Assembly: GCF_003668955.1 (NCBI RefSeq)
Contig: NZ_RAWO01000002.1
Coordinates: 343,605 to 407,604 of the forward strand
DNA length: 64,000 nt
Source of the DNA: Corallococcus sp. AB038B
Lineage (GTDB): Bacteria > Myxococcota > Myxococcia > Myxococcales > Myxococcaceae
Reading direction: 5' to 3'
The notes under the pieces were generated by a model. It was not told the origin of the DNA. It did no database searches and worked only from the letters and a program-made list of their open reading frames with translations. How positions within the stretch are numbered: position 1 is the stretch's first letter; every line of letters starts with the position of its first letter. A program made the position numbers and the translations under genes. Of the stretch, positions 50,522-55,235 are shown one piece after another.

Positions 50522-50537
50522 TGCAAGGCAGGAACCA
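50522..50537 (-). promoter_or_regulatory. Candidate sigma-54 (-24/-12) promoter for the acetyltransferase-GT1-WecB operon
   Basis: The reverse strand reads TGGTTCCTGCCTTGCA, with GG-N10-GC spacing and a TTGCA -12 element. It sits 15-48 nt upstream of the candidate start codons. Confidence 0.35.
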
Positions 50538-50857
50538 TGGCGTCGCACGCGCTGCCGGTGCGTGTCAGGTCGCCGCGGGCCTGTCTGCGTCCCGAACCGG
50601 GATGTCTCATCTGGGGACGCCGGGATGTCTCAAACGTAGACAACGCCGGGATTTGTCAAACAGGCCAGAGGACAAGTCGTTGGCCGAGCGCATCCGGATC
50701 AACCAGAGGGGATGTCTCGACATGCGGGAATGGTCTGTGCAAACGGATGCGTTTGCTGTCCCGCGTACTCCGATGTGCGAGTGCCCGGCCTCGCGCATCA
50801 CCGGGACCGGAGGCGTGCTCCCGTCAAGCGCATCCCCCTGTCAGGAGACCCGAAACC

Positions 50858-52273
50858 GTGAATGTCCTGGACGTGAACCGGCAGTCCCCCGTGGTGATTG
50901 TCGATAGGGATGACGTCGCCAGACGTCGCCTGGGCGCCTGGCTGGAGGCGGCGGGCTACGCGGTGCGCGAGTACGCCACCGCGCGCGAGGCGTTGGAGGC
51001 GGACAGCGCCGAGTGGCTCGCGGTCTGCCTGGAGCTGGTGTTGGACGACATGGCGGGCCTGGACGTGCTGCGGCATCTGCGCGCGCGGGACACGACGCTG
51101 CCCGTCATCGTCCTCACCCGGAACCTGCAGCTCGACACCGCGGTGGATGCCACCCGGATGGGGGCCTTCGCCTTCCTGGACAAGTCCTCTGAACCGGCCC
51201 GGCTCGAGCGGACGCTGCAAAGCGCCGCGAAGACCCGCCGCATGACCTGGCGGGAGCCGCGGGGCGCGCGGGAGGGCGGGGCGGAGCGGCTCATCGGCGC
51301 CATCGTGGGACGCAGCGCCCCGATGCGGACCTTGGCGCGCCAGTTGGATCGCATCCTCCAATCCGACGTGCCGGTGTGCATCTTCGGTGAGACGGGGACG
51401 GGCAAGGAGCTGGTGGCGCGCGCCATCCACGAACAGGGCGCGCGGGCCAAGGGGCCCTTCGTGGCGGTGAACTGCGCGGCCTTCTCCGAGGCGCTCCTGG
51501 AGTCGGAGCTCTTCGGCCACGAGCGCGGCGCCTTCACCGGAGCGTCGGCCCAGCACCGCGGCTGCTTCGAGCAGGCCCAGGGCGGAACGCTCTTCCTGGA
51601 CGAGGTGGGCGAGATGAGCCCCGCCACCCAGGTGCGCCTCTTGCGCATCCTCCAGGAGCGCACGCTGCGCCGGGTGGGCAGCACCACGGAGGTCCGCGTG
51701 GACGTGCGCATCATCGCCGCCACGCACCGGGACCTGGTGGCGGAGGTGAAGGCGGGGCGCTTCCGGGAGGACCTGTACTACCGGCTGGCGGTGTACCCCG
51801 TGAAGGTGCCCGCACTGCGCGAGCGGCCCACGGACATCCTCTCGCTCAGCGACCACTTCCTGGAAAAGTACGGAGGCGCTTCGCTCGTCCTGGCCGACGA
51901 GGCCCGCGAAGCGCTCGTGCGCCACCGCTGGCCCGGCAACGTGCGCGAGCTCCAGAACGTCATCCAGCGCGCCATCCTCTCCTGCGATGGCGAGCGCATC
52001 GAGCTGGCGGACCTCCCACCAGAGCTGCGCGTCCTGGTGCTACCGCCCGTCCCCGTGGCGCCTCCACCGCTTCAGCGGATGTCCGAGGACCTGGCCCCGT
52101 CACCCGACGTGGTGGTGCCGCTGCGTGAACTGGAGCGCCGGGAGATCCTCAAGGCCCTCACGGTGACGAACGGAAGCATCACCCTCGCGGCCCGGCTGCT
52201 CGGCCTGGGCCGGGCCACGCTCTATCGTCGCGTGGCGGAGCTGCGCATCCAGCGGGAGCCGGAGCCGGGGTGA
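50858..52273 (+). CDS. Sigma-54-dependent transcriptional activator, NtrC-family response regulator (receiver + AAA+ + Fis-type HTH)
   Basis: Receiver N-terminus (VVIVDRDDVARRRL...). Sigma-54 interaction domain with GETGTGKE Walker A, the GAFTGA motif (ERGAFTGASAQ) and Walker B (TLFLDEVGEM). C-terminal HTH LGRATLYRRVAELRI. GTG start at 50858. Confidence 0.9.
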   Translation: MNVLDVNRQSPVVIVDRDDVARRRLGAWLEAAGYAVREYATAREALEADSAEWLAVCLELVLDDMAGLDVLRHLRARDTTLPVIVLTRNLQLDTAVDATRMGAFAFLDKSSEPARLERTLQSAAKTRRMTWREPRGAREGGAERLIGAIVGRSAPMRTLARQLDRILQSDVPVCIFGETGTGKELVARAIHEQGARAKGPFVAVNCAAFSEALLESELFGHERGAFTGASAQHRGCFEQAQGGTLFLDEVGEMSPATQVRLLRILQERTLRRVGSTTEVRVDVRIIAATHRDLVAEVKAGRFREDLYYRLAVYPVKVPALRERPTDILSLSDHFLEKYGGASLVLADEAREALVRHRWPGNVRELQNVIQRAILSCDGERIELADLPPELRVLVLPPVPVAPPPLQRMSEDLAPSPDVVVPLRELERREILKALTVTNGSITLAARLLGLGRATLYRRVAELRIQREPEPG

Positions 52274-52299
52274 CACGCTTCCCGGTGCGCGTGGCTCCG

Positions 52300-53232: not shown

Positions 53233-53311
53233 GGTGTCGTCGGTTCCGTTCCTGGGGGGCCCGCCGGACGGAGGGCTGCCCTGTGATGACGCGCGCGAAG
53301 GCGTCTTCCTC

Positions 53312-55171
53312 TCAGCGCGGCTCCTTTCGCGGGAAGGGCCCTTCCATGCCCCTCGACGCTCCGGAGCCGGACCAGAAGCCCATGACGTCGCCCACGCGAT
53401 CCGGATGGGTAGCAAGGTCGGTGCCGAGCCCCACCACCACGAAACCGACGCACGCCTCGCTCCCGAGCAGCCGCCGCAGCGCCCACACCTCGAACACGGA
53501 GTGAGCGCCGGAGCTGGCGACGACAAGCACGCGGGCACCCTTGCGGACCGCGAGTCGCAGCGCTTGCGGACGCCGCGCCTCCTCCCAAGACACGAGCATC
53601 GCGCCTCGTCCCGGGACGTCATCCCGGGCTGGGACGTCCGTTGCCCCAAGCCGGGACAGCAGCTCCCGGGTCCGCTCTTGCTGCGCTTCCCCGAGCGGCA
53701 ACACCCGAGTCACGCCGCTCGCCTCGTCCAGCGCGGCCCGGAGCTCCACGACGAGCTCCTCCAGGCCTTCAGCGGTGGCGGGCCAGGGAGTGGAGGCCAC
53801 CACCGGGCCGCGTCCCCAGAACGAGAACTCGGCCGGCGTCCACAGCTTGAAGCCGCGCAGCGAGGAGGCGGTGAGGGCCACCACGGCCAGCAGCGCGAAG
53901 AAGGGAGGCAGCAGCAGGGCCACCGCGCGGCGGTAGGACTTCGAGGGACGCGTCGGCGGCGTGGCGGAGGTGAGCACGCGCAGCTCCATCGCGGGCTGGC
54001 GCACCTCGCCCTCCACCACCTTCTGACGCTGCTGGAGTTCGGTGAGGCGCGTCTCGGTGATGTGGATCCGCGCGAGCAGCGCGCTGGCTTGGCCCTCCAG
54101 TGCGGACAGCCGTGTGATGCGCTCCTTCGCGGCCTCCTCCGCTTCGGCGTAGGCGCGCCACTTCTTCTGGGCCAGCTCCCGCTGTGAGCCGGCGTCCAGC
54201 AGGCTGTTCTGGAGGAAGGTCCAGGAGGGGTTGGTCCCCACGACGCGGTCGGAGACGGTGCCACCTGCCGGCCGTGACTCCAGGGCCCGCACTGCGGCGG
54301 TGAGCTGCACCACCTCGGGATGTTCCATGGAGAGATTGGCTCCGCGGGCGGCGAGCTCCGCGCGCAGCTCGGCCAGCTTGCGCAGCTCGAAATAGCTCTC
54401 GGTCTCCGACAGCACCATCCGGCTGGGCTGCTCGCGAGCCGCCTGCTTCAGCAACAGCGCCCTGGCGTCCGAGGACTCCGCTTCGATCCGGAAGCGGTTC
54501 TTCTCGGTGCGCAGCCGCGCCGCCTCCTCGATGAAAGACTGCCGGTCGAGCGTGAGCTCCGCGATGCCGTTCTCCTGGCGGAAGCCGTCGTAGCGCGTCC
54601 GGGCCTCCTCCAGTTGCGCCTGGACCTTGAGCACCTCCTCGCCCAGCGCCTTCAGCTGCGCCTCGGCCCGGGTCCGCTCCGAGTCCCGCTGATGGTCCAG
54701 GAACACCTGGGTCATGCCGTCGGAGAGCCGGACGGCCTCCTCGGGGCTCGCTGCGGTCGCGGAGAGGGTGAGGATGTTGGAGCCGCGGGCCACTGCGATG
54801 TCCACCCGCCGGGCCAGCGCCTCCAGCGTCACCGGCAGGCCCGTGCGCATACGCAGCGCCTCCAGGTTGTTGGGGAGCTTGAGCGTGTCCATCAGCGTCT
54901 GGATCTCCCGCTCGGGGTTCGCGGCCGCGCGCGAGCCCGTGGGCTCCCAGACGAGAATGGTGCGAGCGGTGAACTCGCGGGGCATCACGGTCTTGGCCAG
55001 CAGCACGCCCAGGACGATGCCCGCGACGAAGCACCCGGCGATGATCCGCCAGCGGCGCCGCAGCACCCGCGCGATGCGCAGGGGATCGACGGGATACCCA
55101 GAGCGCACCGACTCCTGTCGCACGAGCGCCGTCTGCGTTTCGGGCTCCGGGCCCTCTTCCAGCGAGAACAT
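53312..55171 (-). CDS. Polysaccharide chain-length determinant / polysaccharide co-polymerase (Wzz/GumC-like)
   Basis: TM1 is RRRWRIIAGCFVAGIVLGVLLAKTV. A long coiled-coil periplasmic region follows. A second TM segment is LLLPPFFALLAVVALTA. An alternative start at 55249 would overlap the divergent candidate sigma-54 promoter. Confidence 0.6.
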   Translation of the reverse strand: MFSLEEGPEPETQTALVRQESVRSGYPVDPLRIARVLRRRWRIIAGCFVAGIVLGVLLAKTVMPREFTARTILVWEPTGSRAAANPEREIQTLMDTLKLPNNLEALRMRTGLPVTLEALARRVDIAVARGSNILTLSATAASPEEAVRLSDGMTQVFLDHQRDSERTRAEAQLKALGEEVLKVQAQLEEARTRYDGFRQENGIAELTLDRQSFIEEAARLRTEKNRFRIEAESSDARALLLKQAAREQPSRMVLSETESYFELRKLAELRAELAARGANLSMEHPEVVQLTAAVRALESRPAGGTVSDRVVGTNPSWTFLQNSLLDAGSQRELAQKKWRAYAEAEEAAKERITRLSALEGQASALLARIHITETRLTELQQRQKVVEGEVRQPAMELRVLTSATPPTRPSKSYRRAVALLLPPFFALLAVVALTASSLRGFKLWTPAEFSFWGRGPVVASTPWPATAEGLEELVVELRAALDEASGVTRVLPLGEAQQERTRELLSRLGATDVPARDDVPGRGAMLVSWEEARRPQALRLAVRKGARVLVVASSGAHSVFEVWALRRLLGSEACVGFVVVGLGTDLATHPDRVGDVMGFWSGSGASRGMEGPFPRKEPR

Positions 55172-55218
55172 CCGGTGCGGACCGGCTGCACGGTGGATGC
55201 CAGCCTGGATGGGCGCGG

Positions 55219-55235
55219 ATGGCGGAGCTCTTGCA
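55219..55235 (+). promoter_or_regulatory. Candidate sigma-54 promoter upstream of the alkaline-phosphatase-family/GT operon
   Basis: TGGCGGAGCTCTTGCA matches TGGC-N8-TTGCA (GG-N10-GC). It sits about 60 nt upstream of the ATG at 55297. An NtrC-family activator is encoded 3 kb away. Confidence 0.45.

Follow-up and report, generated by a model that had tools for sequence, protein, structure and literature searches.

What is an NtrC-type activator gene doing in the middle of a polysaccharide gene cluster, and how much of that cluster could answer to it? The question is raised by a stretch of 64,000 nucleotides from Corallococcus sp. AB038B (contig NZ_RAWO01000002.1; hereafter the window), where a first-pass annotation had recognized a receiver-AAA(GAFTGA)-helix-turn-helix (HTH) activator inside a glycosyltransferase cluster, together with two candidate sigma-54 promoters, and had proposed that the pathway is under enhancer-dependent, two-component control. 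Here we argue, from the sequence and its comparison with related genomes, that the cluster is likely to be transcribed almost entirely by the sigma-54 RNA polymerase under this single, cluster-encoded enhancer-binding protein (EBP). A more complete picture is offered tentatively, that of a phosphorylation-independent EBP acting on at least seven sigma-54 promoters, mostly leaderless, in an autoregulated circuit whose layout extends from Polyangia to Myxococcaceae and is distinct from the three Myxococcus xanthus systems.

The open reading frame (ORF) at 50858..52273, on the plus strand, encodes a protein of 471 amino acids that is an NtrC-family bacterial EBP, predicted to activate sigma-54 transcription. 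Pfam assigns to it a Response_reg domain (residues 12-120), the Sigma54_activat domain (PF00158, 149-315, E 2e-71), AAA_lid_14 and a Fis-type HTH domain (HTH_8, PF02954, 422-461), and its translation contains an intact ERGAFTGASAQ loop, Walker A (GETGTGKE) and Walker B (DEVGE) motifs. The closest solved structures among its homologues in the PDB are Aquifex NtrC4/NtrC1 and ZraR, and the protein is 99% identical to a Corallococcus exiguus RefSeq protein for which the same 471-residue start is annotated. Its NCBIfam scores all lie below the equivalog cut-offs, with 386 bits against 558.6 for NtrC, 372 against 714 for AtoC and 345.6 against 502.6 for PrsR. The architecture and setting described by the first-pass annotation are thus confirmed by Pfam and by the translation, the neighbouring genes encoding glycosyltransferases, acetyltransferases, a polysaccharide co-polymerase (PCP) and a flippase.

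Protein searches and exact-sequence look-ups yielded syntenic loci in Pyxidicoccus xibeiensis (L081, with an activator 87% identical to that of the window), in a metagenomic Myxococcaceae contig (L082, 84%), in Corallococcus sp. NCRR (L089, 79%), in a metagenomic Archangiaceae-like contig (L085, 65%), in Hyalangium gracile (L083, 62%), in Cystobacter fuscus (L084, 61-62%) and in a metagenome-assembled genome of Polyangia (L086, 55-56%). Two further homologues, at 52-54% identity (L087 and L088), have lost synteny. An exact look-up of the window protein itself gave no match. GAFTGA is retained in six of six syntenic orthologues, save for an A-to-S change in L086; one of the non-syntenic homologues keeps the motif and the other reads GAFSGA. 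A scan of the genome collection with the EBP returned paralogues only, at no more than 45% identity and swamped by generic AAA+ peptides, and the loci of these paralogues (82 unrelated EBP loci, 1.35 Mb) served as a negative control for the palindrome counts given below.

At least seven sigma-54-type promoters can be recognized in the window, with GG at -24 and GC at -12 at an exact spacing of 10 nt; transcription start sites were assumed to lie 12 nt downstream of the conserved C. One of the two promoters first pointed out, P_hex (TGGTTCCTGCCTTGCA, 50522..50537, minus strand), had been given its exact coordinates and would drive the hexapeptide-transferase/GT4/WecG operon, whose ATG at 50507 falls at about +5. 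The other, P_pde (TGGCGGAGCTCTTGCA, 55220..55235, plus strand), had been placed one base too early, at 55219, and would drive the operon of the phosphodiesterase-like, GT4, Wzy-like and GT2 genes, with a leader of about 50 nt before the ATG at 55297. Both are intergenic and face a gene, and in syntenic loci with activators 55-87% identical both retain GG and GC unchanged at the corresponding place, although the intervening and flanking bases have diverged. Five more can be added. P_ebp (GGGAATGGTCTGTGCA, 50726..50741, plus strand) would drive the EBP gene itself, leaving a 5′ untranslated region (5′UTR) of about 106 nt; P_pcp (TGGCATCCACCGTGCA, 55187..55202, minus strand), which stands back-to-back with the site at 55220 and has the top weight-matrix score of the whole window, would drive the PCP operon (ATG 55171, at about +6); P_gt4m (AGGCATGTCCCCTGCA, 61088..61103, minus strand) would serve the GT4 gene at 59865-61070 (GTG at about +8), P_gt4p (TGGTCCATGAATTGCG, 61209..61224, plus strand) a GT4 gene followed by a PIG-L deacetylase gene (ATG at about +5), and P_flip (CGGCATGCGGGCTGCA, 46289..46304, plus strand) the flippase gene (ATG at about +5). 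The methyltransferase gene at 45518 has no recognizable sigma-54 motif ahead of it, and the intergenic regions contain neither a sigma-70-like promoter hexamer pair nor a terminator match.

These promoters, together with the palindromes described below, recur at equivalent places in L081, L082, L083, L084, L085, L086 and L089, the Polyangia and Corallococcus sp. NCRR loci serving as replication. P_hex is present in seven Cystobacterineae loci, as TGGTTCC-N4-TTGCA in Myxococcaceae and as TGGAACG-N4-TCGCA in Archangiaceae, and in an alignment of the intergenic region between the hexapeptide-transferase and EBP genes from six loci, with a mean column identity of 49%, its GG at -24 and GC at -12 are invariant while the intervening bases vary. 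P_ebp is retained in all six sequences of the same alignment and reads GGAAYGG-N3-(T/A)TGCA in seven loci. P_pcp is found as TGGCAY-N5-GTGCA in the window, L081, L082, L083, L085 and L089, and as cGGTAC-N5-ATGCA before the STAS gene in the Polyangia locus, its equivalents in relatives preceding a STAS or a PCP gene. P_pde is identical in L081 and differs in L082 at one or two positions between -24 and -12, the L082 counterpart being located within the terminal (3′) part of an outer-membrane export (OPX) gene. P_flip is found as CGGCAT-N5-CTGCA in four loci (the window, L081, L082 and L089), with the start codon at +3 to +5; P_gt4p is found as TGGTCCGCGAATTGC in L081 and L089, and each of the three loci, the window included, has its start codon at +5; and P_gt4m is present in two loci, reading CGGCATGCCCCCTGCA in L089. 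When 36 promoter instances from eight loci are pooled, the consensus is TGGCAC-N5-TTGCA; GG and GC never vary, T stands at -14 in 32 of the 36, and the pooled letters (T-G-G-C-A-C/T-G ... T-T-G-C-A) are those of the sigma-54 consensus. We infer that the TGG-N8-TTGCA elements are sigma-54 promoters. The enhancer-dependent control of the polysaccharide pathway that had been proposed would accordingly reach further than first suggested, both original promoters being conserved and five others having been found.

A further regularity concerns the position of the start codons. In about 25 of 30 instances, which include the hexapeptide-transferase, STAS/PCP, OPX, flippase and GT4 operons, the first start codon lies at +2 to +8, and within the window five of the eight operon-leading starts lie at the leaderless distance from GG-N9-TGC (P ~2e-7 to 9e-7). 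The start codons are well supported, since conservation of the acetyltransferase N-terminus sets in at the first Met, and since OPX proteins start with lipoprotein signal peptides that leave no room for an upstream extension. The mRNAs would therefore be leaderless or nearly so, if the promoters are used, taking as leaderless a start codon at most 5 nt from the 5′ end of the transcript, here a predicted one. This would mean leaderless translation of the first genes of most structural operons. By contrast, the EBP gene has a leader of 50-110 nt, with an invariant Shine-Dalgarno (SD) sequence, TCAGGAGA, before its GTG start. In the literature we found no report linking sigma-54 promoters with leaderless mRNAs.

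If the promoters depend on sigma-54, where would the activator bind? The search for activator-binding inverted repeats that had been suggested brought to light conserved palindromic sites upstream of the promoters, at which binding is predicted. Their core is GTCTC-N5-GAGAC and their extended consensus TGTCTCA-N3-TGAGACA. Between the hexapeptide-transferase and EBP genes lies an array (50597..50658) of three direct repeats of CCGGGATGTCTCA, which make up part of the palindromes at 50603-50619 and 50626-50642; these are placed at about -100/-123 from P_hex and at about -141/-118 from P_ebp. A half-site (GTCTC, within 50713..50729) closely precedes the -24 element of P_ebp; this proximal GTCTC is found 7-11 nt before the GG in the window, L082, L089 and L084, is a full palindrome in L083 and is absent from L081. 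A second location, CGTCTCACATTGAGACA at 55275..55291, stands at about -107 relative to P_pcp and about +36 relative to P_pde, and a third, TGTCTCGCATTGAGACG at 61140..61156, lies between the divergent GT4 genes, about -71 from one predicted start site and about -87 from the other.

In the window the exact core is present three times where 0.12 occurrences are expected, at 45454, 55276 and 61141, each time intergenic and within the cluster, and one-mismatch copies stand at 50604 and 50627. In the syntenic loci there are eight exact cores in 126 kb, compared with two in 1.35 Mb of unrelated EBP loci (an enrichment of about 40-fold) and none in the 567-kb high-GC subset of the latter. Tandem palindromes, in two to four copies, are found at the equivalent place in every Cystobacterineae locus; a palindrome lies just before the phosphodiesterase-like gene in L081, L082, L083, L085, L086 and L089, and another between the divergent GT4 genes in three loci, namely the window, L081 (at 19161) and L089 (at 21277). 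Distances of about 70-140 bp upstream, together with dyad symmetry, are those of the upstream activating sequences (UASs) of EBPs. The palindrome TGTCTCA-N3-TGAGACA is thus likely to be an enhancer, and its co-occurrence with the EBP and its geometry suggest that the EBP binds it. Only the exact or one-mismatch core is informative, a search allowing two mismatches having found palindromes no commoner than in shuffled sequence. As to other identities, the MrpC site (GTGTC-N8-GACAC) and the FleQ box are ruled out by their spacing.

A palindrome at the left edge of the locus, TGTCTCAATTCGAGACA at 45453..45469, between serC and the methyltransferase gene, has the exact core and is not conserved in L082; since no sigma-54 motif follows it, its membership of the cluster is uncertain. 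The region just after serC (45448-45474) has extended arms (ACGTGTCTCAATTCGAGACACGT) that form a 9-bp stem without a T-run, and this element may serve not as an enhancer but as a hairpin, a terminator or an operator at the boundary. Separately, before the phosphodiesterase-like gene of L081 (14598-14620) and L089 (15465-15488), the left half of the palindrome is degenerate (TCTCGC) and reads as GG-N10-GC with a start codon at about +4, so that enhancer site and promoter seem to interconvert there.

The next question is what the activator itself responds to. Its receiver was aligned to CheY and NtrC, in agreement with a HMMER alignment to PDB 4l4u. In the window EBP, Arg stands at the position of CheY D13 and Glu at that of the phospho-acceptor D57, while the equivalents of T87 and K109 are kept; the Pyxidicoccus and L082 receivers likewise have Arg and Glu, and throughout the orthologues of the Corallococcus/Pyxidicoccus group D57 is replaced by Glu and D13 by Arg or Lys. 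The Archangiaceae orthologues keep D57 and have Ser for D12, Arg or Asn for D13 and Ala for T87. In the Polyangia orthologue all five catalytic residues are canonical, as they are in the non-syntenic homologues. No histidine kinase gene (HisKA/HATPase) is found between 35 and 64 kb of the window or in any syntenic locus, a negative that holds at the scale of the locus.

The NtrC D54E and CheY D13K substitutions are classic activating mutations that act independently of phosphorylation. Those are laboratory substitutions, whereas the window EBP carries the equivalent Glu and Arg naturally, fixed in its clade. On the strength of the degenerate residues, of the lack of a kinase gene and of the behaviour of D54E and D13K, we read the domain as a pseudo-receiver, whether the natural Glu and Arg be activating, inactivating or merely uncoupling. 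Control of the EBP is thus probably independent of phosphorylation, as judged from the receiver substitutions and the missing kinase gene, and the two-component part of the initial proposal is not supported. Candidates for the input are the expression level, through autoregulation, a ligand such as cyclic di-GMP (c-di-GMP), for the binding of which FleQ-type motifs, too widespread among EBPs, are no guide, or a protein partner. As a separate observation, the only signalling kinase near the locus is a Ser/Thr protein kinase of 920 amino acids (39510-42272), with a zf-HC2-like N-terminus and beta-propeller repeats, encoded about 3 kb upstream of the cluster and not conserved in the syntenic loci.

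Put together, these elements suggest the following circuit. EBP dimers would bind TGTCTCA-N3-TGAGACA in three divergent intergenic regions, at 50.6 kb (in tandem), 55.28 kb and 61.15 kb; the protein would form an AAA+ ring and, by DNA looping, touch sigma-54 through its GAFTGA loop, opening the promoters that flank each region (P_hex and P_ebp, P_pcp and P_pde, P_gt4m and P_gt4p) in addition to P_flip. Because P_ebp would be served by the same enhancer as P_hex, the circuit would be positively autoregulated and behave as an on/off switch. With a receiver predicted to be unable to accept a phosphoryl group in the window species, activity would be set by the level of the EBP or by a non-phosphoryl input, and not by a cognate kinase. 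Most structural operons, starting 2-8 nt past the predicted start sites, would be expressed from leaderless transcripts, the EBP gene keeping its SD leader.

The genes so controlled look like a further Wzx/Wzy-type pathway, present in Corallococcus, Pyxidicoccus, Archangiaceae and some Polyangia. To the left of the EBP gene, the operon at 47825..50507 (minus strand) comprises a hexapeptide acetyltransferase (49953-50507), a GT4 (48814-~49956) and a WecG/TagA-type GT26 (47825-~48817), as assigned by Pfam, NCBIfam and synteny. To its right, the operon at 52300..55171 (minus strand) encodes a PCP without a kinase domain (53312-55171) and a second left-handed-helix transferase (52300-53232), with Pfam Wzz and Hexapep matches, an NCBIfam chain-length determinant match and an N-terminus shared with the orthologues. 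The operon at 55297..59787 (plus strand), whose gene order is the same in L081-L083, L085, L086 and L089, encodes a type I phosphodiesterase-like protein, a GT4, a membrane protein of 402 amino acids and a GT2, according to Pfam; the membrane protein, which has no family match, is a possible Wzy. It is followed by the GT4 gene with a GTG start (59865-61070, minus strand) and by the GT4 gene at 61239-62492 with the PIG-L deacetylase gene that ends at 63322 (plus strand). At the left end, the methyltransferase gene at 45518 and the flippase gene (46319-47821, plus strand; a weak Polysacc_synt_3 match) occupy 45.5-47.8 kb. Four proteins (the EBP, the phosphodiesterase-like protein, the Wzy-like protein and the flippase) receive no equivalog-level name from NCBIfam, and no Rfam match was found in 44-64 kb of the window.

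Of the Wzx/Wzy components, the window thus has a flippase-like protein and a PCP (Wzz), along with a relic of OPX and no Bac_transf, whereas OPX and Bac_transf are both found in L082, L086 and/or L089. Of an OPX (Poly_export) gene, the segment 55200-55296 preserves a remnant of the 3′ end, as seen by comparison with L082 (15328-16409), L081 (14367-14457) and L089 (15359-15495); the window has lost the STAS and OPX genes that in L082 and L086 separate the PCP gene from the phosphodiesterase-like gene, and a STAS remnant ORF persists in L081. Corallococcus sp. NCRR shows a separate, independent OPX deletion in which the 5′ promoter of OPX is retained, so that, different parts having been removed, a sigma-54 motif still stands upstream of the next operon in both lineages. 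Neither the window nor Pyxidicoccus has the gene for the initiating phosphoglycosyl transferase (Bac_transf), which in relatives is flanked by the second acetyltransferase-like gene and the PCP gene (52300-55171 of the window against 12412-13167 in L082 and 12416-13171 in L089). With Bac_transf and OPX absent, either the initiating enzyme and the exporter are encoded elsewhere or the pathway is incomplete.

Several observations weigh against a sigma-54 regulon commanded by the EBP, and the alternatives must be judged by how well they account for them. In the window, TGG-N8-TTGCW is seen three times against 1.86 expected, which is not significant, and the sigma-54 weight-matrix scan that had been recommended, made with a hand-made matrix whose frequencies follow the Barrios consensus, does find P_hex and P_pde, at about 12 bits, scores no better than the top ones of shuffled sequence; as window-only statistics are not significant, the case rests on position and on the related genomes. 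The rpoN gene lies outside the window (it is known to be essential in M. xanthus), and SD-like purine runs follow the -12 element and precede the start codon at P_hex of L084 (9751-9779, agggagggagg), at P_opx of L085 (10806-10836, agggagg) and in L083 (13262-13292, gggag). Such runs would be useless in a leaderless mRNA and thus hint at additional transcripts that start further upstream at these promoters. Chance-level scores, purine runs and the fixed distance from motif to start codon would all suit an account in which TGG-N8-TTGCA is no promoter and represents either a translation or RNA signal tied to the start codon 14-18 nt downstream, or parts of a sigma-70 promoter. We hold this account to be most improbable, because the pooled consensus is that of sigma-54 with the GG-N10-GC spacing exact, and because the motif also occurs 50-110 nt ahead of the EBP and phosphodiesterase-like genes and is therefore not bound to the start codon; a sigma-70 reading would moreover put the start site within the coding sequence, no sigma-70-like hexamer pair having been found, and the EBP gene sits in the middle of the locus.

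It is also conceivable that the sigma-54 promoters are real and that the palindrome is the target of a different regulator with its gene elsewhere, a repressor or a nucleoid-bending protein for example, while the EBP binds other, unrecognized sites. The recognition helix of the HTH domain (GRATLYRR) is generic and the same in the non-syntenic homologues, so that covariation between HTH and site is not demonstrable and cannot be used to tie the EBP to the palindrome; the window palindrome at 55275-55291 lies downstream of P_pde, within its 5′UTR; another stands behind serC, with extended hairpin arms; and no palindrome comes nearer than about 1 kb to the back-to-back P_pcp/P_opx pair of Hyalangium and related loci. 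These points weigh against the EBP as the binding protein, yet we consider a different regulator unlikely, given that the palindrome co-occurs with the EBP and the cluster in three families and is rare in the 82 unrelated EBP loci, that the distance to the promoters and the dyad geometry suit an enhancer, and that the locus holds no other conserved regulator gene. That a distant histidine kinase activates the EBP by phosphorylating its receiver, in canonical two-component fashion, appears very unlikely to us: Pfam does detect the receiver, T87 and K109 are kept, the Polyangia orthologue has the full catalytic set and the analogous EpsI/Nla24 of M. xanthus is phosphorylated by a neighbouring kinase (PMC7484181), but this account is opposed by the Glu and Arg/Lys substitutions of the Corallococcus/Pyxidicoccus group, the loss of D12, D13 and T87 in Archangiaceae, and the want of a kinase gene in or beside any syntenic locus. 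Finally, the window lacks the OPX, STAS and initiating-transferase genes of its relatives, which may mean a pathway in decay or dependent on genes elsewhere. That the cluster is here a decaying remnant, in which control elements persist while the pathway is incomplete, would be compatible with sigma-54 control by the EBP and agrees with the OPX relic at 55200-55296, where L082 and L089 keep Bac_transf, STAS and/or OPX; we judge it quite unlikely, as genes of M. xanthus pathways are often found at distant loci (PMC7310880). Moreover, the remaining ORFs are all intact with a high GC3, the promoters survive the deletions and Pyxidicoccus has the same reduced layout.

How does the proposed regulon, with the EBP acting at sigma-54 promoters through the palindrome, compare with known systems? 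At glnAp2, NtrC binds two dyad sites of the 7-3-7 type, TGCACCA-N3-TGGTGCA, about 110-140 bp upstream of a TGGCAC-N5-TTGCA promoter, and activates through looping, with positive autoregulation. This geometry is matched by the window array (about -100/-123 and -118/-141) and its 7-3-7 dyads. The window system differs in its half-site (TGTCTCA), in having an enhancer common to divergent promoters, in its polysaccharide targets, in its NtrC score below the cut-off and in its receiver, predicted to be non-phosphorylatable.

Another parallel is the eps locus of M. xanthus, which had been invoked from the outset and does hold an NtrC-like activator, EpsI/Nla24, needed for expression of the locus and for exopolysaccharide (EPS) production, and able to bind c-di-GMP (PMC4877007). 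Like the window EBP, Nla24 is a receiver/AAA+/HTH activator within a Wzx/Wzy polysaccharide locus; unlike it, Nla24 adjoins and is phosphorylated by a kinase, MXAN_7439, in an insertion between two eps gene clusters (PMC7484181), whereas the window EBP has a degenerate receiver and no kinase gene. The mechanism of Nla24 at the eps promoters was still unresolved as of 2016 (PMC4877007), while in the window cluster candidate promoters and binding sites are visible. Three Wzx/Wzy pathways have been described in M. xanthus (PMC7310880), and the published gene tables of eps and MXAN_1025-1052 list one sigma-54 regulator and no STAS or phosphodiesterase-like genes, so that the neighbours of the window cluster differ. 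Among the 120 best homologues of the EBP, down to 52% identity, no protein is named as belonging to Myxococcus, many of these matches being nameless. With no Myxococcus among the named matches and a different gene content, we see a parallel system rather than the eps locus; as set apart by these matches, the gene tables and the receiver and kinase features, the window EBP is probably not the EpsI/Nla24 orthologue, and the comparison with eps holds as an analogy, the genes and the kinase being different.

Two other systems deserve mention. The PrsR/PrsK PEP-CTERM/exosortase EPS regulon, the nearest parallel in approach, was defined by comparative genomics, which linked an EBP to a conserved motif upstream and to a -24/-12 motif ahead of many genes, with a partner kinase, PrsK, and a sigma-54 motif on average 71 nt from the start codon (PMC1569441). 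In the window cluster the motif is about 16 nt from the start codon, there is no kinase, the EBP falls below the PrsR cut-off, and no PEP-CTERM or exosortase genes were seen; the window PCP is weakly similar to the XrtA-system chain-length determinant (NCBIfam). PexR, a bacterial EBP of M. xanthus, is encoded divergently from its target and has a conserved sigma-54 promoter, repeated UASs and a proposed leaderless transcription (PMC12754779). There the proposed leaderless transcript is that of the regulator gene and comes from a sigma-A promoter, whereas in the window the structural genes look leaderless and the regulator gene has a long leader; furthermore, the PexR regulon concerns peroxide stress, and that of the window polysaccharide.

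Other features were noticed in and around these loci. A perfect palindrome of 29 nt, GGAAACCTGTCCGACAGTCGGACAGGTTT, has three intergenic copies in the window (~5106-5133, ~5175-5201 and ~24481-24508), two of them in tandem, 69 nt apart and with similar flanks, and looks like a REP-type repeated hairpin element. Large genes beside the cluster (27452-38171), one of which encodes an AAA+ protein with a Pvc16_N domain, and the phage sheath and gp19-like tube genes of the Pyxidicoccus locus (L081, 1-2593) suggest that a contractile injection system adjoins the polysaccharide locus. In the Polyangia locus the acetyltransferase operon is replaced by a second receiver/AAA+/HTH activator and an unknown protein of 216 amino acids (L086, 7905-9928), and a strong TGGTCTTCAACTTGCA motif (10004-10019) precedes the two, overlapping the start annotated for the first activator gene.

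Control of surface polysaccharides by EBPs and sigma-54 is already known; what is added here is its coverage of a whole cluster. Unusual in this case are the pseudo-receiver EBP, an enhancer common to divergent promoters that include the one of the EBP gene itself, and the apparently leaderless sigma-54 transcripts. The locus amounts to a complete and testable regulon map, with one activator, a candidate enhancer motif of 17 bp and seven promoters with predictions at the level of the base. It raises the question of how an EBP with "always-on" receiver substitutions and no kinase would be regulated, whether sigma-54 promoters can routinely supply leaderless translation, and which product is made by this additional myxobacterial polysaccharide pathway. 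By means of the motif and the promoters, the remaining members of the regulon could be traced in Corallococcus genomes, and the cluster could be turned on so that its product may be identified.

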